Shown: positions 562 to 62,576 of the stretch, piece after piece
How the letters are laid out: every line of letters starts with the position of its first letter
Position numbering within the stretch: position 1 is the first letter of the stretch
Assembly (NCBI GenBank): GCA_016182085.1
Contig: JACOYB010000006.1
Location: 2,015 to 66,014 of the forward strand
DNA from: Candidatus Magasanikiibacteriota bacterium
GTDB lineage: Bacteria > Patescibacteriota > Patescibacteriia > Magasanikbacterales > GWA2-37-8
Direction of reading: 5' to 3'
Length of the DNA: 64,000 nucleotides
The notes under the pieces: model-generated
The model's input: only the letters and a program-made list of their open reading frames with translations
What the model was told of the DNA's origin: nothing
Database searches by the model: none
Program-made: the position numbers and the translations under genes

Positions 562-649
562 TTATTATAATTATACAGAGAAAAAACGCGCTTGTTTTGT
601 TAATACTAACCAAGCAAGCGCGATTTCTCTGGGTTAAAGGCCGTTAATT

Positions 650-786
650 GTCATTCTGATCAGAGCGAAGAATCCCTCTTCACTGTCATTCCCGCCCGAG
701 AGCGGGAATCCAGTCGACAATTGTCTGGATTCCCAATCAAGTTGGGAATGACAGACAAAAATCCTTCGTTACACTGAGGATGACAA
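650..786. repeat. Palindromic repeat cluster, GTCATTCCC..GGGAATCCAG family (copy R1, intergenic)
   Basis: Units gtcattcccgcccgagagcgggaatccag and ctggattcccaatcaagttgggaatgacag plus flanking degenerate units. Same family at 30908, 32971, 35011, 50144, 53502. Confidence 0.8.
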
Positions 787-4311: not shown

Positions 4312-4671
4312 GTGATTATAGTTATGGTTAGAAAATTTTTTTTGGTTTTTATATTTTTCTTCGCGCTTTTTAGCATGGCAGCTCCGGTTGCGGCTCAATT
4401 TGGATTGCAAGCAACGGCGAACAAGGCCCAATACGGAGAAACTAATATTTATTCTGTAATCAGCACGGTAATTAGCATGGTACTCTCATTTACCGGTATA
4501 GTTTTTTTGGCCGTTATGTTTTATGCCGGACTCCGCTGGATGACTGCTCGTGGGAATGAAGAATTCGCTACTAAAGCCAAAGATGCCATGTTTGCCGCGG
4601 TTATCGGTTTTATCCTGGTAGTAGCTGCCTATGGAATTTCTACCTTTGTCTTTAACAATCTTCTAAAATAG
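4312..4671 (+). CDS. T4SS pilin-like protein, paralog 6
   Basis: LRWMTARGNEEFATKA motif, two hydrophobic segments. Start may be M5 at 4324. Confidence 0.7.
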   Translation: MIIVMVRKFFLVFIFFFALFSMAAPVAAQFGLQATANKAQYGETNIYSVISTVISMVLSFTGIVFLAVMFYAGLRWMTARGNEEFATKAKDAMFAAVIGFILVVAAYGISTFVFNNLLK

Positions 4672-8246: not shown

Positions 8247-8330
8247 AGCCGCGGTGGTGAAATTGGTAGACACGCCAGCCTTAGGAGCTGGTTCTCGCAA
8301 GGGAATGAGAGTTCGAGTCTCTCCCGCGGC
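8247..8330 (+). tRNA. tRNA-Leu(TAG), type II
   Basis: Acceptor GCCGCGG/CCGCGGC, anticodon stem CCAGC/GCTGG, loop CTTAGGA, long variable arm, T-arm GAGAG/TTCGAGT/CTCTC. Confidence 0.85.
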
Positions 8331-30061: not shown

Positions 30062-31141
30062 ATGCAAATTACAGTTATAAAAAATCAAAACGAATGGAAT
30101 AGTTGGTTTTTACAAAAACCAGAGCCTCATAGCTTTGCCCAATCCTGGGCTTGGGGCGATATTTTAATTTCCGAAGGAAAAAAAGTGGAACGATTAGCGG
30201 TCATAGAAAATGAATTAGTTATAGCGCAAGCGCAGGTGGTGTATAGCCCTATTTTTTTCGGCTGGCAGTATGCCTTTTGTCCCAAAGGGCCGGTGGTTGA
30301 TTCACTCAGAAGTGAAGATGGTAAAATACAAATATATAAAATAATCAAAGAATACTTAAAAAATAAAAATTGTATATTTTTTAGAATTGAACCGGGAGTA
30401 TTGCCGGTTATGCCGCGTTCATTTTTTTTCAAAAAAACAATTGATATCAACCCATCAACCACGCTGCTGCTTAATTTAAACCAAACTGCCGCTCAGTTGC
30501 GCGGCAATATGCATCCTAAAACCAGGTATAATATTGCCCTAGCAGAAAAGAAAAATGTAAAGATTATCCAGGAAAAAAATTTGGAAGTATTTTGGATGCT
30601 GATGAATAAAACCGGAAACCGAGATAAATTCAGTTTGCATCATAAAAAACATTATGAAAAAATATTGGCAGCAGAAAGCGTTTTTCAGCTTACAGCGTAC
30701 TATAACTCGGTGCCGGTCGCGTGCGCCGTATTTATTGGTTTTGGAAATACCTTTACTTATCTATACGGCGCGTCAGATTATGAATATAGAAATTTGATGG
30801 CGCCGTATTTGCTCCAATGGGAAGGTATGGAACTGGGTAATGATTTTGGCAGTAAATGGTATGATTTTTTTGGAGTCGCGCCACGTTTACAGTCGGAGTC
30901 GTCAGCTGTCATTCCCGCCGCTAGCGGGAATCCAGACAATTTAGGTCAACACGGGATTCCCAATCAAGTTGGAAATGACAGCTATAACTATAGCTTCAAA
31001 CACCAGTATGCCGGCGTAACCCGCTTTAAATTGGGTTTTGGTGGCGTTCCCTATGAAGCCCCGGGCACGTTTGATCTGGTGGTTGATAAGAAAAAATATA
31101 AAATATATACTTTGCTTCGGTGGTTGCGGCGGTTATTTTAG
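30062..31141 (+). CDS. FemAB-family peptidoglycan interpeptide-bridge aminoacyltransferase-like protein (palindromic repeat inserted in-frame)
   Basis: SWAWGDIL and FemAB-like pattern. Residues SAVIPAASGNPDNLGQHGIPNQVGND are encoded by the repeat. Confidence 0.65.
   Translation: MQITVIKNQNEWNSWFLQKPEPHSFAQSWAWGDILISEGKKVERLAVIENELVIAQAQVVYSPIFFGWQYAFCPKGPVVDSLRSEDGKIQIYKIIKEYLKNKNCIFFRIEPGVLPVMPRSFFFKKTIDINPSTTLLLNLNQTAAQLRGNMHPKTRYNIALAEKKNVKIIQEKNLEVFWMLMNKTGNRDKFSLHHKKHYEKILAAESVFQLTAYYNSVPVACAVFIGFGNTFTYLYGASDYEYRNLMAPYLLQWEGMELGNDFGSKWYDFFGVAPRLQSESSAVIPAASGNPDNLGQHGIPNQVGNDSYNYSFKHQYAGVTRFKLGFGGVPYEAPGTFDLVVDKKKYKIYTLLRWLRRLF
30908..30981. repeat. Palindromic repeat R2 (GTCATTCCC family) inside the FemAB-like CDS, reading frame preserved
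   Basis: gtcattcccgccgctagcgggaatccag ... gggattcccaatcaagttggaaatgacag. Confidence 0.8.
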
Positions 31142-31152
31142 TTTATGAGTAA

Positions 31153-31224
31153 GTCCTCGTAGTCCAATGGATAGGATACCAGCTTCCGAAGCTGATGGTG
31201 CAGGTTCAATTCCTGCCGGGGGCA
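31153..31224 (+). tRNA. tRNA-Arg(CCG)
   Basis: Acceptor GTCCTCG/CGGGGGC (two G-U), anticodon loop TTCCGAA, T-arm GCAGG/TTCAATT/CCTGC. Confidence 0.7.
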
Positions 31225-31230
31225 CTAACC

Positions 31231-31270
31231 AAAAATCCCTCCGATGTTACATCGGAGGGATTTTTGGTTT
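31231..31270 (+). terminator. Rho-independent terminator
   Basis: aaaaatccctccgatgttacatcggagggatttttgg. Confidence 0.75.
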
Positions 31271-31317
31271 AACGAAACCATGTCGCGTAACGTCCTTTGA
31301 GGCGCGGCGCTTAATCT

Positions 31318-33669
31318 TTATTCTTCAGCTGGGTTTGCTTTAGTTGAAGCAGTCTCTTCATTTGTTTTTTTATAATCACATTCTTTACTGCTGCATTTGA
31401 TAACTCCTTTGGCGGCAAAAACCAGTGGCTGTTTGCAGGTCGGGCAGAATTCGCCAGTTGGTTTTTCCCACAACGCATATTCACAATCCGGATAGCGGTT
31501 GCAGCTATAGAATGGCTTGCCGCGCTTGCTGCGGCGCTGCACGATATCGCCCTCGCCACACTTAGGGCACTTCATGTTCATTTTAATTTCAATATTTTTA
31601 ATATTCTTGCATTTAGGATAGCCGGAACATCCTAAAAACGGCCCGAATCGTCCGCGGCGCAGGATCATTGGTTCGCCGCACTTTTCGCATTTTTCGTTTG
31701 CTTCCTCCACCGCTTCTTGCTGTTTGGCTTCCTCGGCGTTTAAAGATTTGGTTGTTTTACACTCCGGATATTTGGTGCAAGCCAAATATTTGCCAAATCG
31801 TCCGGTTTTAATAATCATATCCGAGCCGCACTTTTTACATTTTTCATCGGATTTTTCTTCGGTCAAAACTTTTTTATCTATTTCTTGTTCTTTTTTATCC
31901 AAGTTTTCTTTAAACGGTTTCCAAAAATCACCAATCACCGGCCGCCACTGCTTTTTACCGCGGGCGATTTCATCAAGATTATTTTCCATTTCCGCCGTAA
32001 ATTCATAATCTACGACATGGTGGAAATGTTCTACTAGTAAATCGTTAACAATATAGGCGATGTCTTTGGGGGCAAACCTTTTTTGTTCGTTGCGCTCAAT
32101 ATAGCCCCGATCCTCAATCGTAGAAATTGTGGGAGCATAGGTAGAAGGCCGGCCAATGCCATAATTTTCCATAGCTTTTACGAGTGTTGCGTCCGAGTAT
32201 CTGGCCGGAGGTTCGGTAAAATGCTGTTCCGGTTTAAGTTCGTTACAGGTAAGCGGTTCGTTATTCTTAAGCTGCGGCAAGAGATTTTCTTTGGCTCTAT
32301 CCGGGAACAGCTTTAAGAAACCATCAAAGACAATAGTTTGGCCATTGGCTCGGAATTTATAATCATTTTGGCTAGATATATCTATCGTAGTGGCATTTAG
32401 CTCGGCTGGGGCCATCTGGGTGGCAACAGCGCGTCTCCAGATAAGGTCATAAAGCCTGAATTGTTGTCTGTCTAGGTATTGTTCTATAGACTCGGGTGTG
32501 CGCATAGCTTCGGTAGGTCGTACGGCTTCGTGGGCTTCTTGAGCGTTTTTACTTTTATTATTATAAATTCTAGGAGAATCCAGCTGATATTTTTTGCCAA
32601 AATTATTACCGATAGTATCTTTGGCATCAGCCAAAAATTTTTCCGAAAGATTAACCGCGTCCGTACGCATGTAGGTAATCAGACCTACGGATCCTTCAGT
32701 TCCAAGTTCTATGCCCTCGTATAATTGCTGCGCCAAACGCATAGTCTGTTTGGCCGAAAAACCAAGATGACTGTTGGCTTCTTGTTGGAGGGTAGAAGTG
32801 GTAAATGGGGGAGAAGGCAAGCGTTTGGTTTTTTTCTCTTCCACGTTTTCTACTATATAAGTAGTTTTTTCTAAATCAGCCAAAATTTTGTCTATCTCCG
32901 CTTTAGTTTTTATATCTAGCTTATCTATTTTTTTGTCTTTGATCGCAATGAGCTTTGCGGTCAAGCAATTGTCATTCCCAACGAATTGGGAATCCAGTGT
33001 CCGGTTGTCTGGATTCCCGCTGGAGTTTATCCCGTGCTCCGACACGGGAGCGGGAATGACAAGCGACGAGTCGGAATGACAGAACAGCCCCTCGATACTC
33101 CAGTACTCTTCCGGGTTAAAAGCTTTTATTTCTCTTTCTCGTTCTACAATCAGGCGCACAGCCACCGATTGCACGCGTCCGGCCGACAAACCCTTGGCTA
33201 CTTTGCGCCACAAAAATGGAGATAGTTCATAACCCACTAATCTGTCCAAGATTCGGCGAGCTTGTTGCGCGTCTACCATTTTTAAATCTAGCGGGCGTGG
33301 ATTTTCTAGAGCATGCATTATGGCGGTTTTGGTAATTTCATGGAATACAATGCGTTTGGCGTCTTTTGGTTCAATTCCCAAAATATTGGCCAAGTGCCAA
33401 GAGATAGCTTCTCCTTCTCGGTCCTCATCGGTAGCAAATAGGATACCATCGCATTTTTTGGCCGCTTCTTTTAGTTCTTTGGCTACTTTGGTTTTGTCGC
33501 GGCTTACAATATAATGAGGTTCAAAATTATGTTCTACATCCACCCCCAGTTTGCTTTTTGGCAAATCACGGACATGGCCAAAAGAAGACTTCACAACAAA
33601 GTTTCTGCCCAAAAATTTGGAAATAGTTTTGGCTTTAGTAGGGGATTCTACGATGACTAAATTTTTCAT
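31318..33669 (-). CDS. topA: DNA topoisomerase I with C-terminal zinc ribbons (palindromic repeat inserted in-frame)
   Basis: Toprim VIVESPTKAKTI, active-site region, four C4 zinc ribbons. Repeat encodes SLVIPAPVSEHGINSSGNPDNRTLDSQFVGND. Confidence 0.9.
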   Translation of the reverse strand: MKNLVIVESPTKAKTISKFLGRNFVVKSSFGHVRDLPKSKLGVDVEHNFEPHYIVSRDKTKVAKELKEAAKKCDGILFATDEDREGEAISWHLANILGIEPKDAKRIVFHEITKTAIMHALENPRPLDLKMVDAQQARRILDRLVGYELSPFLWRKVAKGLSAGRVQSVAVRLIVEREREIKAFNPEEYWSIEGLFCHSDSSLVIPAPVSEHGINSSGNPDNRTLDSQFVGNDNCLTAKLIAIKDKKIDKLDIKTKAEIDKILADLEKTTYIVENVEEKKTKRLPSPPFTTSTLQQEANSHLGFSAKQTMRLAQQLYEGIELGTEGSVGLITYMRTDAVNLSEKFLADAKDTIGNNFGKKYQLDSPRIYNNKSKNAQEAHEAVRPTEAMRTPESIEQYLDRQQFRLYDLIWRRAVATQMAPAELNATTIDISSQNDYKFRANGQTIVFDGFLKLFPDRAKENLLPQLKNNEPLTCNELKPEQHFTEPPARYSDATLVKAMENYGIGRPSTYAPTISTIEDRGYIERNEQKRFAPKDIAYIVNDLLVEHFHHVVDYEFTAEMENNLDEIARGKKQWRPVIGDFWKPFKENLDKKEQEIDKKVLTEEKSDEKCKKCGSDMIIKTGRFGKYLACTKYPECKTTKSLNAEEAKQQEAVEEANEKCEKCGEPMILRRGRFGPFLGCSGYPKCKNIKNIEIKMNMKCPKCGEGDIVQRRSKRGKPFYSCNRYPDCEYALWEKPTGEFCPTCKQPLVFAAKGVIKCSSKECDYKKTNEETASTKANPAEE
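32971..33082. repeat. Palindromic repeat R3 inside topA, frame preserved
   Basis: gtcattcccaacgaattgggaatccag ... ctggattcccgctgg...gggagcgggaatgacaag ... tcggaatgacag. Confidence 0.8.
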
Positions 33670-33725
33670 AATCGAAATGAGTGAGTAAATATATAAGCTT
33701 GCTTATTTATTTACGAGCGAATGAG
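33670..33725 (-). promoter_or_regulatory. Bipartite conserved upstream motif (box A and box B) abutting the topA start
   Basis: Minus-strand read ...CTCATTCGCTCGTAAAT...TTACTCACTCATTTCGATT-ATG. Extra degenerate boxes further upstream. Confidence 0.6.
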
Positions 33726-33889
33726 TTTATTTACAAGCGAAGTGAGTGAAAAGGACATTTATGTGCTTTTCCGAACAAGCGCAGTAAATATGGAAACCTA
33801 TATATGAGCTTTGCCCTATTTTATTGAAAAATAGAAGTTACAAGAATTAAAGATAATATAAATTATACCATTTGTCAACCGGGGCCATA

Positions 33890-35010: not shown

Positions 35011-35217
35011 TGTCATCCCGCCTGCCCGCCCTGTCGTTGGCGGGAGTGAGGCCTTAGCCGACGAGGGATCTAGGGTTGTCATTCCCGCCACAGCGGGAAT
35101 CCAGTATCCAATCAAATCGACTGGATCCCCGCTGTGGCGAGGATGACAACTGTGCAGACAGAGATTCCCTACCTACCGCAGGTAGGCTCACCCCTGCGAA
35201 GGGATTCGGAATGACAG
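35011..35217. repeat. Composite four-module palindromic repeat R4 (intergenic dprA-pth)
   Basis: Four modules: gtcatcccgc..gagggatctag, gtcattcccgccacagcgggaatccag, ctggatccccgctgtggcgaggatgacaa, cagacagagattccc..gggattcggaatgacag. Same architecture as R6. Confidence 0.8.
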
Positions 35218-48054: not shown

Positions 48055-50619
48055 TTAGTTGTCGTTTTTTTTCATGACCAAACTCCAGATTTTGTCGGAA
48101 CCAAGCTCTGTTAGTTTTATTGACATGCCATTAGCTGCAGCCGAAAGTCCGAGGCCGTCGTGCCAAATTGGCAGCCAGCCATCCGGGAAAATTACCTGGC
48201 TTTCAAAGTTGCTGTTAATGCCGGATTGTTTTTGCGCCACAAGTTGATAATTGGAAATTGGTTCCTGAGATTGAAAAATTTTTGCCCAATTATTTAAGTT
48301 TGAATCACCTTGTTTTTCCCAGGCTTTAAATGGTAATTTGTAGATAAATTGAACTTCTGTCGTTTGGCCTGGTTCGGTAATGATCCAGTTGCCAAAAGCT
48401 GTTTTGCCAAATTCTTTGGTAATGCGGGTACCTGATAAACTATCGGTTGATTCTTCTTTTTCCAGGGCAGCTAAGGTTTGGTCTTTTTCATACCAGCTTT
48501 CCGGAGCTCTAAATATTCTTTCTTCTGGCCAGGTAAAGCCGCTGGCGCGCACGAGCTCACTGCCTTCGGGTACATAGATTCGCAGGTAATCAATATTGGT
48601 TTGTCCATATAATTTTTCTTGACTGTTTCCGGTATGCTCTCGGGTTATAACGACGCTGTTTACAATCGTGCCGTCTGGCTGGATAACCGCCTGGTGGCTG
48701 ATGTTTTGTTTTATTTTTGCGTCACTTTTCTGTCCTTGAATATTGGTATTTACTACAAGCAGGTAATCTTGATTTGGATTTGTTTGTATGATTTCGCCGC
48801 TCCAGCCAAATTCGCGAATCGTTTTTTGAGTATTTTCATCGGTAAAGTATGTTTGAATTTCTTTTTGCTGCAAGCCTTCTTCCAAGTTGGTAAGCATTGG
48901 CAAAACTGCTTTTGGTGTTATGTTTTTGAAATTTTCAATAAAAACCGGCGCCAAATCCGATAGAATTTGTTTAGGTTTATTATCCTTTTTTTCTGGGCCA
49001 TACTCTACGATATCTTGAATGGTGGCGAGTGCATTTGTTTTGTCTAAAACCAGTCCGCGATTCTCGTCGGCTACCGGACCCATTATGGAAAGTAGGCGAT
49101 TCAAAACACTGGCATTTATAGCGATTACCCCGTCAGCCGTAACTCCGCGGCTATGGCGGTAGAACCAAAGTGCTTTTTCGGCACTGGCCGGAAAGTCAGG
49201 GAACCAGTTGGCATCCTGGAACTCCCAGCGTTTATTGGATAATAGTAGCGGCGTAGGCGGGACAATATACTCGGTAAGCTGTCCTTGCAGGTCATAGGAT
49301 CCGCCGGCGGGAATGTCTATATGTATTATTTCACCATCCTTAATGTCTAACATGGCAAAACTGCCCATAAAACCGCCGGTAGGACGGAGCTCAGCCGGAT
49401 TTTGGAAAATAAGCAAGTATCTTCGCAGACCCTTGCCGCCAAAAATTTCCTGTACGGCGTTATTTAACTGAGCGATGGTTTCCAGATCTTTGACGTAGAC
49501 ATTAAATAAAACACGGAATTCTTTAAATGTGTCTTGGTATTCAAACGGCAACACATCTGAATCAACGTTATTTAATTCACGCACGGCTGTTTGATAATGG
49601 GGCAGGGAAAATTTTAGATGATCTCCCACAAGCGCCAGATTTTTGGTGATGGTGGAGTTGGATTGTTGAATTTCAGACAAACCTTTGAGCAAGTAGGTGT
49701 TGCCTAAGGAAATTTCTTGTCCGGCGACGATAAGCCGCTGGCGGCTTTGGACCTCGTTGTTCACGATAGGTACGGCTGAAATGATTTTTTGTAAAAAGCT
49801 ATATTTACTGTCCAAGATATTTACAGCCTGTTCAAAATTTTGCAGCGCGTCAGTGAGTGATAGCTGGGCATCGGTTAGGTTGCCGCTCATAAGCGCGGAA
49901 GTAGAATCGTGCAGCGCGGTAAAACCGGCGGTGCTGCTATCCGCGATTTTGTTGGTTGTGGATTTGAGGTCAAAGTAATAGGTGCGCGCGCCAGACGGTA
50001 CGAATATTAAAAAGAGTATGGCGAGTGTCGCGCCTACAAAATGCTTGGGAGCGGCTGTAGCGCGAATTTTATGTATGGCAGATTTAGCTTTTTGCGCGTG
50101 TGAAAATTTTAGATCAGAAAGTTTTTGGGATAATTTTTTAATTGTCATCCCGAACTTGTTTCGGGATCTAGATGCTGAAACAAGTTCAGCATGACGCTGT
50201 GTATTTTTTTGTTGAGTTGGTTCTTTTTGGGCTTCCATTATTTTTGGCAAGAAAGACGGCGCTGCCACCGGCTTAGCAGCCGATTGCGCAGCGGTATGCC
50301 GCTCATGAAAAAAATAAAAATCATTATTTTCTTCCGGAGCCACGGCTTGGATATGTTCCAGTAATTTATTCTTTTCTTTTTTAAGATTTACCAGGTGCGG
50401 GGATTCATGATTTTGATATTGAACATGGTGTACAAAAAATTTGAGCGGCGCGCGTTCCGTTTGACCAGTGTTTGTTTGCGATACCATGTTTGGGCTCACT
50501 TGTTTGTCCAGGTTGAAACTTAAAGCATCTGGGCAAGTGGATTTGTTGTGCCCTACTTTTTGGCAGAAACCGCAATGTCGGAGCTGGAGTTTTTTAGCCG
50601 GTTTTAGTTTTTTGGCCAT
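48055..50619 (-). CDS. Hypothetical large membrane-anchored protein with N-terminal zinc-knuckle (palindromic repeat inserted in-frame)
   Basis: CGFCQKVGHNKSTC, one TM helix, ~650-aa extracytoplasmic domain. Repeat R5 encodes HAELVSASRSRNKFGMT. Confidence 0.5.
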   Translation of the reverse strand: MAKKLKPAKKLQLRHCGFCQKVGHNKSTCPDALSFNLDKQVSPNMVSQTNTGQTERAPLKFFVHHVQYQNHESPHLVNLKKEKNKLLEHIQAVAPEENNDFYFFHERHTAAQSAAKPVAAPSFLPKIMEAQKEPTQQKNTQRHAELVSASRSRNKFGMTIKKLSQKLSDLKFSHAQKAKSAIHKIRATAAPKHFVGATLAILFLIFVPSGARTYYFDLKSTTNKIADSSTAGFTALHDSTSALMSGNLTDAQLSLTDALQNFEQAVNILDSKYSFLQKIISAVPIVNNEVQSRQRLIVAGQEISLGNTYLLKGLSEIQQSNSTITKNLALVGDHLKFSLPHYQTAVRELNNVDSDVLPFEYQDTFKEFRVLFNVYVKDLETIAQLNNAVQEIFGGKGLRRYLLIFQNPAELRPTGGFMGSFAMLDIKDGEIIHIDIPAGGSYDLQGQLTEYIVPPTPLLLSNKRWEFQDANWFPDFPASAEKALWFYRHSRGVTADGVIAINASVLNRLLSIMGPVADENRGLVLDKTNALATIQDIVEYGPEKKDNKPKQILSDLAPVFIENFKNITPKAVLPMLTNLEEGLQQKEIQTYFTDENTQKTIREFGWSGEIIQTNPNQDYLLVVNTNIQGQKSDAKIKQNISHQAVIQPDGTIVNSVVITREHTGNSQEKLYGQTNIDYLRIYVPEGSELVRASGFTWPEERIFRAPESWYEKDQTLAALEKEESTDSLSGTRITKEFGKTAFGNWIITEPGQTTEVQFIYKLPFKAWEKQGDSNLNNWAKIFQSQEPISNYQLVAQKQSGINSNFESQVIFPDGWLPIWHDGLGLSAAANGMSIKLTELGSDKIWSLVMKKNDN
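50144..50197. repeat. Palindromic repeat R5 (two hairpin units, 54 nt = 18 codons) inside CDS 48055..50619
   Basis: gtcatcccgaacttgtttcgggatctag + atgctgaaacaagttcagcatgac. Confidence 0.7.
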
Positions 50620-52545: not shown

Positions 52546-52956
52546 ATGAAAGAATCATTTTTCAAACATATTCCAAAACCGGAATCAGGCGCTGAAGAAC
52601 CGCACAAACAACCCAAAGTTGTAGACATTCCAGCCGGCGGCAAAGAGAAAAAAATAGATGCAGACCCGATTGCCCGATACACTAAAACTTACCACAAAAT
52701 CATGCTTGATTTCGGTCATCAAATTATAAACTCAAAAGAGAAAAGCCTGGCTATACCAAATAGTTTAGAACTCATGATAAAAAATTGCGACACCGATCAG
52801 CTGGTTGGTGAGATTGAGAATACAAAAAAGGAAGACTGGAAACGCAGGGAAGTGTTGTTTAAAGCAATTACCGATGAAATTTATCTGCGGTTATGGGAAG
52901 CAAGGAAAGGTTCAAAAAGAAAAACTAAATCCGCCGATATTATAAAAGTTCAATAA
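52546..52956 (+). CDS. Hypothetical protein
   Basis: Start set at MKESFF, where the conserved box B ends. The ORF-track start at 52453 would put the motif inside coding sequence. Confidence 0.45.
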   Translation: MKESFFKHIPKPESGAEEPHKQPKVVDIPAGGKEKKIDADPIARYTKTYHKIMLDFGHQIINSKEKSLAIPNSLELMIKNCDTDQLVGEIENTKKEDWKRREVLFKAITDEIYLRLWEARKGSKRKTKSADIIKVQ

Positions 52957-54235
52957 ACTCTTTGGCAGATTCTGTCCAGCTAAATTTTTTAGCTTGCTCT
53001 GGGCCTAATTTTTTAAAATCTTCTCTCAAGGATTCATTTTTTAGTATATCCGCCATTGCTTTTGCTAGTTCTGAAGGGCGGTTGGGGTTTACCAAATAGG
53101 CGGCATTTTCGGTGATTTCCGGCAAGGATGAGCGGTGGGAGGTAATAACCGGTACGCCACAGGCCATCGCTTCGGCTACAGGAAAACCAAAACCTTCATA
53201 AAAACTTGGGTAGACAAATAAGTCCGCTAATGAATACAAAATGTGTTTATCTATTTCTGCTACCGAACCGATAAATATTATTTTATCTCTGGCTGGTGAT
53301 TTTTGCGCGGCGCTAAAAATGGCTTCGTCATTCCAGCCTTTATGGCCGGCAATTATTAGGGAGTAGGTGGTAGGCAGTAGGGAGTAGCATTGTTCAAAAG
53401 CACTTATTAGGCCAATAATATTTTTGCGCGGTTCTATAGTGCCTAGGAAAAGAATAAACTTACCTGGAAGGTTGTATTTTTTTTGTACCATTTCTTTGTT
53501 TGTCATCTCGAGCGATCCCGACTGCTCGGGAGACGAGGGATCTTTATCCGTTGTCATTCCCGCCGCAAGCGGGAATCCAGTATCCGATTGTCTGGATTCC
53601 CGCTGTGGCGGGAATGACAAGTGACCGGACAGAGATTCCTCGCCGATGCGAACCGGGTTCGGAATGACAGTTGATTGATTGTTTGAGCAGGTAACCCCAG
53701 GATAAATCACTTTAATTTTTTCCGATGGAATTTTGTACAAGTCAATGATATCTCGTTTGGTATTTTCCGACGGCGTAATGATAATCTCAGCCTGCTGGCA
53801 TTGTTTTTTTGGGTTAACCGCCCAGTGCCATAAGCGTTGTTTGGGAGAAAAAAATTGCGGAAAAAATTCAAAAGACAGATCGTGGACAGTAAGTATCTGT
53901 TTTGGTTTTTTGGTTAGGGCGGTAAAGCCAAAATTTGGTGAAAAGAAATAGTCCAGTTTAATTTTTTTGTCTATTTTTGGCGCGTTTAGAAGTTTTGTAG
54001 ATGCGTTAAATAATTTGTTGGGCCAGCGCGTGGCAACATAGCCTATATTAGGCTGTTTCCACTCAGGAATATTTTTGGAAATATCCGTATATGAATTATA
54101 AAAAAGAAAATATTGATTTTGTTTATCAATTTCAAAAATAGCATTCAGAAGTTCGTGTGTATATTCGCCTATGCCAGCCCGAACGGGAGACATGAGAGAG
54201 CGGATATCTATGCCAATTTGCAACATACTACCCAA
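52940..54235 (-). CDS. GT4-family glycosyltransferase (composite palindromic repeat inserted in-frame)
   Basis: C-terminal EGFGFPVAEAMACGVPVI. Residues LSGHLSFPPQRESRQSDTGFPLAAGMTTDKDPSSPEQSGSLEMTNKE come from repeat R6. Confidence 0.75.
   Translation of the reverse strand: MGSMLQIGIDIRSLMSPVRAGIGEYTHELLNAIFEIDKQNQYFLFYNSYTDISKNIPEWKQPNIGYVATRWPNKLFNASTKLLNAPKIDKKIKLDYFFSPNFGFTALTKKPKQILTVHDLSFEFFPQFFSPKQRLWHWAVNPKKQCQQAEIIITPSENTKRDIIDLYKIPSEKIKVIYPGVTCSNNQSTVIPNPVRIGEESLSGHLSFPPQRESRQSDTGFPLAAGMTTDKDPSSPEQSGSLEMTNKEMVQKKYNLPGKFILFLGTIEPRKNIIGLISAFEQCYSLLPTTYSLIIAGHKGWNDEAIFSAAQKSPARDKIIFIGSVAEIDKHILYSLADLFVYPSFYEGFGFPVAEAMACGVPVITSHRSSLPEITENAAYLVNPNRPSELAKAMADILKNESLREDFKKLGPEQAKKFSWTESAKEFIELL
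53502..53670. repeat. Composite four-module palindromic repeat R6 inside GT4 CDS, frame preserved
   Basis: Modules parallel R4: gtcatctcgagcgatcccgactgctcgggagacgagggatct, gtcattcccgccgcaagcgggaatccag, ctggattcccgctgtggcgggaatgacaag, cagagattcc..ggaatgacag. Confidence 0.8.
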
Positions 54236-57396: not shown

Positions 57397-58998
57397 TTAT
57401 AATGGAAGTTGGCTTGAACCTTCCGTAGGTTGTTCGGTCGGGGCCGGTTGTTTTGGCTGAATAAATTTATCAAATCCTTGCGGCAATTCCACTCGTCTGA
57501 ATTGTTGTGGGCCTTGTTCCCAAGGCAGCTCGTCTTCTTTCCCGGTTAGATCCTCAATTTTGCTTTCAAACTCTTGTTTTATATTTTCTAAGTCATCCAA
57601 AGCATCGCTAACCATGTCGGTGTCTACGGGCTTGGTTTTTAAGAGGTTGAGAACTTCTACGCCCTTTTCGTTCGCTTGGGCAAGAATAGATTCTAGTTCG
57701 CTAGTATCTACTTTTTTTCTCTTTAAGTTTTTAATAGTGAGATTGGCTTGAGCCATGCCTCGCTTGAATTCGGAATTAAAGCGGCCTAAATTGCTCATTG
57801 TCATTATGACTCTTTGATATTGCCAAACATCATCCATTTGGCCAAAGAAATCATCTTCCAAAGCAGAAAATGCTTCTTCCGAGTTGCCAGCCTTCATTTT
57901 AGCTACAGCATCATCACGAACACTTTTTAGTTTGTTTACAGCTTCTTCAAAAGCTGTGTATTCGCTCTGAACATCTATGCCTTTTTTAGCCAGAGTGGCT
58001 ACAGTTAATTTTGCTCGTTTTAAAGCGGCGGATAGTTGAGCTAATTGACGATCAATTTGTTTTAAGGTTTGTGGCCAGCGAGCCAAAACCTCCAATTGTT
58101 GGCGGTCTTCGTCAAATGTCTCCATCATATCTCGCATTGATTCCATTTCTTCCTGCACATCTTCAAAAGATGTTGCGTTTTTGACCTTATCAACCACAGA
58201 ACGAAGTTTGGCTACATGTTCGGTAATATCAGTAGGCACGGTTATGCCTTTTTTAGACAGAACGGCTAGCTGTCTCTCAAACATTTTGAGCCCTGTTTCC
58301 ATGCCTTTCATGCCGCGTTTCATGCCTTCTATTTGTTGCGCCTTTTCAAAAATTTCTCTTCTGGCATCTTCTAGATAGCGCATTAAAACTTGCACCTCGC
58401 TTATATCAACGTCTTCCAAGCCTTCAGCGCTCGTGGCATTTTGGATTTTATCAAGCAGAGTCTTTAGGTCGCTTAATTTTTGTTTTACTTCTTCAGGAAC
58501 AGCCGTGCCTTTTTTTTCGGCGCTGGCGATCATTAGTTCAAATTGCTTGACTTGGCGGGCCATTTGTTTCATCCCTCTTTTTATTTGCTCCAATTGTCTG
58601 CCATCATTTTGTCCGCCCATCATGCCTTGATTCTGGCTAGGGTCATAATTTGGCGGCATTTGGCCTGGGTACTGTTTATATTGATCGCCAGATGGGGGCA
58701 TCATGCCTTGAGGCGGCATTGGGTATTGCCCTTGGTTTGGATCTTGGGGGTACATTGTTCCCTGGGGAGGCATTGGATATGTCTGATCGGAGCCGCTTGG
58801 TGGAGGGGGCGGCATAGGAGAGGTAGGAGCCGGGGCAATGGTTGTATTGTCTTCGGCGTATACTTGGGTTGATCGTACGGCCTTAAACAGTACCTTAAGG
58901 CTTTGTGGTAATTCTAAATAAAAAGCGTGTGCTGGTTTTGCCATTAATGTGAACGCAAAAATAGCAAAAATTGATATTATTTTTGCAAAATGTTTCAT
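57397..58998 (-). CDS. Hypothetical secreted Pro/Gln-rich coiled-coil protein
   Basis: Signal peptide MKHFAKIISIFAIFAFTLMAKPAHA, PPxG low complexity, then long heptad region. Confidence 0.5.
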   Translation of the reverse strand: MKHFAKIISIFAIFAFTLMAKPAHAFYLELPQSLKVLFKAVRSTQVYAEDNTTIAPAPTSPMPPPPPSGSDQTYPMPPQGTMYPQDPNQGQYPMPPQGMMPPSGDQYKQYPGQMPPNYDPSQNQGMMGGQNDGRQLEQIKRGMKQMARQVKQFELMIASAEKKGTAVPEEVKQKLSDLKTLLDKIQNATSAEGLEDVDISEVQVLMRYLEDARREIFEKAQQIEGMKRGMKGMETGLKMFERQLAVLSKKGITVPTDITEHVAKLRSVVDKVKNATSFEDVQEEMESMRDMMETFDEDRQQLEVLARWPQTLKQIDRQLAQLSAALKRAKLTVATLAKKGIDVQSEYTAFEEAVNKLKSVRDDAVAKMKAGNSEEAFSALEDDFFGQMDDVWQYQRVIMTMSNLGRFNSEFKRGMAQANLTIKNLKRKKVDTSELESILAQANEKGVEVLNLLKTKPVDTDMVSDALDDLENIKQEFESKIEDLTGKEDELPWEQGPQQFRRVELPQGFDKFIQPKQPAPTEQPTEGSSQLPL

Positions 58999-59091
58999 AT
59001 ACGAAATGAGTGAGAGAGCTAAATTAAATGTGCTTAATTTAGTTCCGAACGAATGAGTATATACCTTAGTATATTCGAAATGAGTGAGAGA
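58999..59091 (-). promoter_or_regulatory. Conserved upstream motif cluster (box B, box A, box B) abutting the start of ORF 57397..58998
   Basis: Minus-strand read CTCTCACTCATTTCGAATATAC...TATATACTCATTCGTTCGGAA...CTCTCACTCATTTCGTAT-ATG. Confidence 0.6.
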
Positions 59092-59279
59092 AAGAATTAA
59101 ATGTTTTAATTCTTTCCCAGTGTTTGAGCATATACCTGAAGTATATGCGTTTTAAAAAAGAAGCTGATTAGATATATAGCCGCAGAAGCGGCAACGACCT
59201 TTTAGGAGATTTATTTTACGATAAAAGTATTATACCATAAATTTTGAAAAAAATCAAGGTCTATTCTAGCTAAAGTTTG

Positions 59280-62314: not shown

Positions 62315-62494
62315 TGGACGAGGAGGGGCTTGGCTTCGACTAAAATTTTCTTCCGAAAATTTTGTCTAGCCACCCGTCCGAACGGATTCATCCGGGCGGG
62401 CCGCCTCACGGCCGCGCTCGCCCGCCTGCGTCGCGCGACATCGTTCCGGCGTTCTCGTCCCTCGCCGCAACACAAACTATTGTGTTGCTCTTAG
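62315..62494 (-). other. Conserved GC-rich tRNA-Leu-associated element (copy 2) ending in a direct repeat of the tRNA-Leu(CAG) 3' end
   Basis: Reverse complement ~85% identical to 8331-8514. Terminal cccctcctcgtcca repeats the tRNA 3' end. Confidence 0.75.
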
Positions 62495-62576
62495 TGGACG
62501 AGGAGGGACTTGAACCCTCAAGGATTGCTCCATACGCTTCTGAGACGTACGCGTATACCAGTTCCGCCACTCGTCC
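62495..62576 (-). tRNA. tRNA-Leu(CAG), type II
   Basis: Acceptor GGACGAG/CTCGTCC, anticodon stem TACGT/GCGTA, loop CTCAGAA, long variable arm, T-arm GAGGG/TTCAAGT/CCCTC. Confidence 0.8.

Follow-up and report, generated by a model that had tools for sequence, protein, structure and literature searches.

How do palindromic repeats come to lie within genes for conserved enzymes with the reading frame kept, and what allows them to stay? The question is raised by a 64-kb stretch of contig JACOYB010000006.1 from a Candidatus Magasanikiibacteriota bacterium (hereafter the window), in which a FemAB-like gene and topA, encoding topoisomerase I, each contain one such repeat. A first-pass annotation of this DNA had described open reading frames (ORFs) that run through a 74-nt repeat in the FemAB-like gene and a 112-nt repeat in topA, and had compared both to the Rickettsia palindromic elements (RPEs). 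We find that the repeats are members of the pan-bacterial NTS/SRM family, which is tied to small GIY-YIG nucleases named Ssn. We hold with good confidence that they are insertions of this family that survived, presumably translated, in permissive protein loops, presumably after an Ssn-linked spread, and that decay neutrally. The repeats are not a new class of element; what is new is the presence of in-frame, presumably translated copies in a lineage of the candidate phyla radiation (CPR; Patescibacteria), to which Candidatus Magasanikbacteria, the source of the closest TopA homologues, belong.

In-frame repeats in topA and the FemAB-like gene

Both ORFs were intact and uninterrupted across their repeats (Table 1), and the peptides that had been quoted for the two repeats are exactly those encoded. 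The FemAB doublet, which reads TGTCATTCCCGCCGCTAGCGGGAATCCAG, a 16-nt spacer and CGGGATTCCCAATCAAGTTGGAAATGACA, codes for V283-D306 (VIPAASGNPDNLGQHGIPNQVGND), and the topA element codes for C197-D233. Comparison with orthologues upheld the claim that these segments interrupt otherwise conserved enzymes. We used sequence from relatives (L001-L008, ~90 kb together, L003 being the closest) and a set of 121 TopA orthologues (P numbers below), and refer to the proteins encoded in the window as the query. In L001 and L003, the two closest relatives, the syntenic FemAB orthologue is 337 aa long and lacks the doublet; 25 query residues stand against three in L003, a net gain of 22 aa. The TopA insert is missing from ~105 of the 121 orthologues, most of which are ~751 aa long and read ...EEYWSIEGxF-TPDSKEIF-TGKL..., with a hairpin turn of ~7 residues. 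The query has 39 residues (C197-C235) against seven there, a net gain of 32 aa. In both alignments the repeat-encoded segment appears as an insertion.

Table 1. Repeat elements of the window, their parts and their host genes (positions are those of the 64-kb window).
Feature	Position	Strand	Remarks
FemAB-like host gene (PF02388)	30062..31141	+	359 aa; ORF and Pfam
74-nt hairpin doublet, in frame in FemAB-like gene	30907-30980	+	sequence reading
FemAB doublet, left unit	30907-30935		
FemAB doublet, spacer	30936-30951		
FemAB doublet, right unit	30952-30980		slightly decayed
topA host gene	31318..33669	-	783 aa; ORF, Pfam and PDB matches
112-nt composite, in frame in topA	32970-33081	-	TGTCAT...ATGACA on coding strand
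topA element, outer-left remnant	33062-33081		20 nt; parts as on coding strand
topA element, extended-inner-hairpin unit	33009-33061		
topA element, spacer	32998-33008		11 nt
topA element, AAT-loop-type unit	32970-32997		
Intergenic nested composite	649..785	+	outer pair TGTCATTCTGA... / ...GAGGATGACA; inner doublet 684-753
Intergenic nested composite between dprA and pth	35011..35216	+	206 nt; at least 3 hairpin units
DUF4012 host ORF	48055..50619		
Short doublet, in frame, DUF4012 protein N-terminal region	50143..50195	-	GTCATGCTGAA... / ...CGGGATGACA
GT4 glycosyltransferase host ORF	52940..54235		
169-nt nested composite, in frame in GT4 gene	53501..53669	-	

The two genes are under purifying selection and are not pseudogenes. 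Checks for a frameshift or stop, which would have marked them as such, found none, and relative to L003 the ratio of nonsynonymous to synonymous substitution rates (dN/dS) is 0.086 for TopA (dS 0.49) and 0.17 for FemAB (dS 0.25).

The TopA insert had been placed between the core domains and the zinc ribbons. This position needs correction: by Pfam the protein has a Toprim domain, a Topoisom_bac domain (residues 128-579) and three Zn ribbons from ~residue 608, so that the insert at residues 197-235 falls within Topoisom_bac, ~370 residues upstream of the ribbons. It directly follows the EEYWSIEG motif and takes the place of the turn between strands 188-197 and 235-243, in a beta-hairpin that we take, from the E. 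coli structure, to belong to domain II. Alignments made with phmmer to 6ozw and 4rul break exactly at the insert, query residues 198 and 250 corresponding to 237 and 253 of 6ozw. In an AlphaFold2 model built from 63 sequences the confidence score (pLDDT) was below 50 at residues 201-231, and the flanking strands were confidently placed. Mapped onto structure, the insert falls in a loop, which is predicted to be disordered. The FemAB insertion point corresponds to residues 372-375 of S. aureus FemA (1lrz), a tight turn, and most phmmer alignments of FemAB against 1.84 billion representatives split at query residues 272-280.

Six loci of the window carry the element, four of them in frame within genes (FemAB-like, TopA, GT4 and DUF4012) and two intergenic; the in-frame GT4 and DUF4012 copies had escaped the first-pass annotation. 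In GT4 the element supplies ~56 residues between the N- and C-terminal Rossmann domains; the Pfam domains stop at residue 183 and resume at 251, and 72 residues separate the aligned blocks against 21 in MshA (3c4q), ~50 extra. Six-frame translation left each intragenic copy no more than one or two open frames of the six, and the host frame is always among them: it is the single open frame in the FemAB doublet and the GT4 element, and it is open in the DUF4012 doublet. Both intergenic copies, by comparison, have no open frame among the six. An open host frame in a sequence so limited is the pattern predicted by selection on a translated insert, and splicing or bypass would not need it. None of the element lengths of 74, 112 and 169 nt is divisible by three, and the frame was preserved only because a few target codons were replaced along with the insertion. 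The repeats are thus palindromic, dispersed, frame-preserving and stop-free in the host frame, as had been described.

A hairpin family and its GIY-YIG partner

Readings of the elements as inteins, introns, sites of translational bypass or CRISPR-like repeats were ruled out by size, missing motifs and the frame analysis. Rfam, searched at gathering and E-value thresholds, held no family for the elements and returned only sub-threshold long-hairpin noise. A 54-aa tandem repeat-peptide query against an index of 5.8 billion proteins, a word index unsuited to short peptides, yielded one candidate and no match.

The repeat unit is a hairpin of ~28 nt, (T)GTCATTCCC-stem-loop-GGGAATCCAG, and every unit begins GTCAT and closes with the complementary stem. 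Two inverted units 11-16 nt apart make up a doublet, the termini TGTCAT...ATGACA are common to all composites, and at three loci (649-785, 35011-35216 and 53501-53669) an inner doublet is nested in the outer spacer; the one at 684-753 has the unit types of the FemAB copy. These features exceed chance. The 11-mer GTCATTCCCGC occurs 10 times in the window with at most one mismatch (0.79 expected), and 11 GTC-anchored hairpin units were found against 0.98 in shuffles. As single strands the elements fold better than their shuffles (z -3.8 for the FemAB doublet, -5.3 for the TopA element, -6.0 for the DUF4012 doublet and -10 for the inner doublet of GT4).

The published regular expression for the SRM motif, HGTCWYN(0-2)YYVSBRHN(0-5)WNVSBRGN(0-2)RNCYNB, matched four times in the window against 0.09 expected. 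Three matches are genuine (the FemAB left arm at 30907-30935, 35121-35148 and 53552-53580) and the fourth (17988) is apparently spurious. The dRS3 pattern ATTCCCN8GGGAAT is satisfied by ATTCCCGCCACAGCGGGAAT (35081-35100) and ATTCCCAACGAATTGGGAAT (32974-32993), for example; others have N9. The strict Neisseria NTS string is unmatched in the window, the units having T for C at position 1 and a longer loop; one unit arm is identical to N. gonorrhoeae DNA at 29 of 31 positions.

The family extends far beyond this lineage. In a one-genome-per-species collection the exact doublet pattern, whose 31 specified bases give by our estimate a chance expectation far below one, matched at least 120 stretches. 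These span more than 20 phyla; isolates are represented (Sphingopyxis, Novosphingobium, Ottowia, Pseudomonas), as are several groups of Patescibacteria. The first-pass annotation had expected lineage-specific surface loops; a loop is indeed predicted for the TopA insert, but the doublet itself belongs to no single lineage. Only ~8 of 125 doublet copies lie inside long open frames, and copies in other Patescibacteria groups are mostly intergenic, so that intragenic retention is a feature of the clade and not of the family. Separately, a hairpin unit of the window type lies under the annotated ileS of Sphingopyxis indica (NZ_CP076395.1, 32498-32527) and may be an intragenic SRM copy outside the CPR.

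When the 845 ORFs lying no more than 1.5 kb from 125 doublets were clustered all against all, no recurrent transposase emerged, only generic families and a small GIY-YIG protein. The latter, of ~95 aa, was present in four doublet loci from three phyla, each time flanked directly by hairpins, and was the only family so flanked. In metagenomic loci with a ~95-aa GIY-YIG gene, 74 of 80 had a GTCAT hairpin no more than 300 nt away. Such hairpins numbered 6 per kb within 250 nt either side of the gene against ~0.3 per kb farther out, and the units were oriented, upstream ones forward (83:24) and downstream ones reverse (85:24). Where enough flank was available, 49 of 68 loci had hairpins on both sides, the median gap lengths being 30 and 16 nt. 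Two unit subtypes known from the window recur downstream of these genes, one with the AATCAAGTT loop and one with the GGAGTTTATCCCG extension that TopA shows; in L132 the extended-loop type of TopA also adjoins an ssnA-like gene. The GIY-YIG proteins form a very large family, with 75-96% identity across phyla, and a Patescibacteria contig (L075) encodes a member.

This association of hairpins with a small GIY-YIG gene has already been published as the NTS/SRM-SsnA system. SsnA is a 94-aa single-domain GIY-YIG protein that binds the hairpin in single-stranded DNA (ssDNA) and cuts just upstream (Chenal et al., Nat Commun 2025, PMC11893778), and in N. meningitidis it cuts integration of NTS-bearing transforming DNA ~5-fold (PMC11893778). 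NTS is CGTCATTCCCGCGMAVGCGGGAATCYRG and contains dRS3, SRM being the degenerate motif (PMC11893778). An SRM adjoins 71% of ssnA homologues, on both sides in 42%, and 81% of the genomes that contain over 200 SRM also have ssnA (PMC11893778); our 74 of 80 flanked loci agree with these figures. Only 2% of the N. meningitidis NTS lie within genes, and the NTS-ssnA-NTS arrangement was likened to insertion sequence (IS) elements and REP-RAYT (PMC11893778). The words 'intragenic' and 'Patescibacteria' both occur nowhere in the text of that paper.

The window repeats resemble this system in their core, TGTCATTCCCGCCGCTAGCGGGAATCCAG against CGTCATTCCCGCGMAVGCGGGAATCYRG, in the hairpin with a directional GTC flank, in the pan-bacterial range and in the bracketing of ~95-aa cd10448-type GIY-YIG genes. 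They differ in forming tight inverted doublets and nested composites, in lying in frame within genes at 4 of 6 loci against the 2% for NTS, in their CPR host, and in loops 1 nt longer, with some arms outside the regular expression.

The RPE analogy proved apt for behaviour. RPEs are ~100-150 bp long, genus-specific, and each has a conserved peptide (Ogata et al. 2000, 2002, as summarised in PMC10969869). Like the window repeats they are, in the same account, dispersed palindromes in frame in unrelated housekeeping genes, their peptide being compatible with fold and function (PMC10969869). Unlike RPEs, the window elements encode peptides that change with loop length and frame (VIPA... versus SFPP... 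versus CHS...), their content differs between orthologues, and their family is pan-bacterial. An approximate RPE probe had no match in a plasmid collection and hit no Rickettsia record. Rickettsia and Wolbachia are among the SRM-rich genomes, Rickettsia being listed with more than 300 SRM (PMC11893778). The likeness to RPEs concerns behaviour; sequence and partner place the repeats in NTS/SRM-Ssn.

NIMEs, said to be Neisseria-specific, are intergenic dRS3 arrays with RS elements of 50-150 bp between (PMC1797815). Units of the window satisfy the dRS3 pattern, yet their pairs are tight (11-16-nt spacers), 4 of 6 loci are intragenic, and they form no such array. REPINs and the REP-RAYT system share with our elements inverted hairpin doublets, a hairpin-flanked partner that can be single-copy (as seen here for one Ssn protein), and the absence of target duplication; REPINs, however, are extragenic, and the partner here is a GIY-YIG protein and not an HUH Y1 transposase. 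Judged as MITEs (miniature transposable elements with inverted repeats), the repeats have terminal inverted repeats (TGTCAT...ATGACA) and a gene-bearing form, whose nuclease is no demonstrated transposase.

Mitochondrial GC clusters and double-hairpin elements are further small intragenic repeats. So are ERIC, BOX, Coxiella QMITE1 and the Anabaena MITEs (PMC10969869). All are small structured repeats that sometimes lie in ORFs and add peptide segments, as here, but their sequences and partners are others. The literature searched contained no description of such in-frame repeats, or of other small intragenic ones, in CPR bacteria.

At L086 (Pseudomonadota, ~241-700) an ssnA-like ORF meets no stop codon ahead of the hairpin units downstream and continues across them (..TVIPAFPTVIPAHAGIQN..); a tandem array of truncated units lies upstream of it.

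Recurrent occupation of the same two loops

Alleles with inserts had been expected in one lineage only. Instead, scattered TopA and FemAB orthologues hold different elements at the same two loops. The turn after residue 196 was the sole major internal insertion site among the TopA orthologues, and 16 of the 121 have at least 8 extra residues there. In five of them (P0007, P0008, P0011, P0012 and P0013) the insert starts CHS or CNA and ends D-N-C or D-N-S; in DNA these are TGTCAT...ATGACAAYTGC, with varying internal unit content. The insert of P0115 starts CHP. In a tree calculated without the insert columns, insert-bearing alleles were scattered among insert-free sisters. The query grouped with P0001-P0005 (97-88% identity), of which P0001 has a different, slightly shifted insert and the others have none.

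At the FemAB loop, the distant L007 carries the same doublet as the query, at the same site and with the same junctions. L005 and L006 have a CHSEQSEESL...QDD element there, inserts of the CH[SP]D...[ND]D type were present in 3 of 137 diverse representatives, and the segment flanked by conserved anchors is anywhere between 17 and 65 residues long across orthologues. Between the query and L007 copies the stems are nearly identical and the loops and spacer randomised, though the gene dS is ~1.5; the right arm of the query already has two stem mutations.

Insert-free TopA alleles of both major clades share a similar short turn that is missing from insert alleles, so simple loss cannot restore the insert-free state. 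From these sequence comparisons we favour a history in which an old first insertion would have been followed by nesting and deletion inside it, alleles then being exchanged by homologous recombination. The flank analysis did not separate this exchange model from repeated independent insertion: in a recombination-patch check of the query TopA allele, flank identities to L003, L001 and L004 did not discriminate. A filled-versus-empty site exists between pth and dprA. This intergenic spacer measures 6 nt in L004 and L008, whereas the window has its 206-nt composite there and L001 has another composite of the same family.

Inserts of other kinds were seen in the same proteins. The FemAB of L004 and L006 has further repeat-like in-frame inserts (TTVPEPLCDSVRGFA and NTPPFIPPLKGEGRGVGL), and TopA P0054, P0055 and P0073 have an in-frame insert, PSPLQSPSGRG, after residue ~400. 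This suggests that additional GC-rich repeat families are translated in the clade.

Proposed origin and retention of the intragenic copies

The repeats are copies of a pan-bacterial hairpin family, the DNA partner of the small single-domain Ssn nucleases. We propose the following account of them. A doublet would represent the two hairpins that normally bracket ssnA, minus the gene, and would for that reason resemble a REPIN or MITE. In a gene-dense Magasanikbacteria genome with almost no intergenic space, copies would persist within genes under three conditions: a net change that is a multiple of three, a stop-free host frame, and a permissive loop as the site. Such sites would be the hairpin turn of TopA, a C-terminal loop in the FemAB-like protein, the linker joining the two GT4 domains and the N-terminal region of the DUF4012 protein. 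Copies would be translated there as unstructured loops and would afterwards decay neutrally. Ssn, or recombination begun by its nicks, probably spreads the copies; the inserts are probably translated, tolerated passengers rather than useful; and the scarcity of intergenic space would account for the high share of coding copies.

Several observations weigh against this proposal. The TopA arms and several other units fall outside the SRM regular expression and are close variants only. No target-site duplication was found at the six loci, nor any defined target motif. The same junctions were hit in scattered lineages, which simple random insertion followed by selection does not explain. By tblastn no ssnA homologue is present in the window, which covers ~6% of a ~1-Mb genome, or in L001-L008. 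One exact 95-aa Ssn protein occurred in eight samples at one conserved locus. What the published work demonstrates is that ssDNA is cleaved and transformation affected, rather than any transposition (PMC11893778).

A more active role can be imagined. SRM doublets could be still-active elements whose alleles spread between related CPR lineages by transformation-driven gene conversion, homing-like and begun by Ssn nicks, with intragenic copies tagging incoming homologous ssDNA for Ssn cutting and RPEs belonging to the same Ssn-linked family. If true, one mechanism would account for in-frame selfish palindromes in reduced genomes. We regard it as rather improbable.

Somewhat less likely still is that usefulness explains why the copies within genes are kept, either through Ssn cutting of incoming homologous ssDNA as in Neisseria, which would limit or shape allelic replacement by transformation, or through a function gained by the loops. 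The ~5-fold lower integration of NTS-bearing DNA in N. meningitidis fits such a role, as do the nearly identical FemAB stems of the query and L007 at a gene dS of ~1.5, the occupation of the same two loops in many lineages and the position of dprA next to topA in the window. But content, length and unit type vary freely among orthologues, most of which have no insert at all, the FemAB right arm is already mutated in its stem, the TopA loop is unstructured in the AlphaFold2 model, and no ssnA was seen in the lineage (window and L001-L008). Recent insertion from conserved master copies explains the conservation of the stems equally well.

Similarly doubtful is the idea that another enzyme, such as a Y1 transposase of the RAYT/IS200 type or a recombinase of the IS110/Piv type that targets dRS3 in Neisseria, spreads the repeats, and that the Ssn gene merely homes to or sits at them. 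The doublet has the anatomy of a REPIN, which is partnered by RAYT, neisserial filamentous phages integrate into dRS3 via their own transposase, and the Ssn gene can occur as a single copy at a stable position. The latter is illustrated by the locus found in eight samples (L209-L216), a stable, single-copy gene between kdsA and kdsD, downstream of pyrG. This single locus gives no sign that the Ssn gene itself has transposed recently; the gene looks domesticated rather than mobile. Against another enzyme stands the absence of a recurrent transposase among the 845 ORFs near doublets, the small GIY-YIG protein being the only one flanked directly; hairpins are ~20-fold enriched and oriented around its gene, and the published genome-wide screen singled out ssnA (PMC11893778). 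Pfam analysis of 30 ORFs of the window found housekeeping genes only and no Y1 transposase.

Three further readings are very improbable and already largely refuted. Old, fast-evolving loops with a chance likeness to repeats would suit sites that are hypervariable even in insert-free orthologues, such as the FemAB segment of 17 to 65 residues; yet the DNA belongs to a repeat family with intergenic copies in the window and members in >20 phyla, and the closest relatives lack the segments. Pseudogenes are at odds with intact ORFs and a dN/dS far below 1. Removal of the inserts before or during translation would leave the open host frame unneeded, and the elements, which are too short for it, show neither intein nor intron features and have no Rfam match. 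Metagenome assemblies can indeed break at repeats, and very short contigs carry many of the Ssn genes, but chimeric assembly or binning can practically be dismissed, since independent NCBI, JGI, ENA and Logan assemblies show in-frame elements at both sites with flanks and synteny intact.

Retention of NTS/SRM insertions in permissive loops remains the reading we prefer. The 2025 description of NTS/SRM did not settle if the repeats are mobile, or what their role is beyond Neisseria. Filled and empty sites in close relatives, nested doublets and the re-occupied TopA and FemAB loops supply natural evidence on both points. In a genome with 6-nt intergenic spacers, repeats would become translated protein loops, which would make this a second independent system, beside Rickettsia, of selfish palindromes remodelling essential proteins. 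The TopA and FemAB units offer concrete substrates for the study of Ssn specificity, and such inserts call for caution in CPR protein annotation and phylogenetics.

Other repeats and gene changes were seen in the window and its relatives. A second, AT-rich repeat family of ~130 nt is found immediately 5′ of start codons at 33690-33830 (the topA ATG being at 33669), 8558-8627 and 58988-59102, and the pth-dprA spacer of L003 is filled by the same sequence; the family may represent a mobile element that bears a promoter or 5′ untranslated region. In L006 (165-4712) and L007 (828-3782) synteny breaks upstream of topA, the usual genes being replaced by AbiEii, bAvd and Bro-N-type genes, a defence- or phage-like content.

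The 23S rRNA gene of the window, which spans ~3.2 kb (9485-12690), contains a group I intron (12119-12317, Rfam 69.9 bits); rRNA insertions such as group I introns are common in CPR bacteria. A 172-nt inverted duplication, 90% complementary, occupies 8334-8505 and 62322-62493, both copies lying directly next to a gene for tRNA-Leu (8248-8332, anticodon tag; 62494-62576, anticodon cag). Finally, small paralogous membrane proteins with the motif G(F/L)xWMTAxGN(D/E)E are encoded in a tandem array at 178-2748 and 4324-4671.

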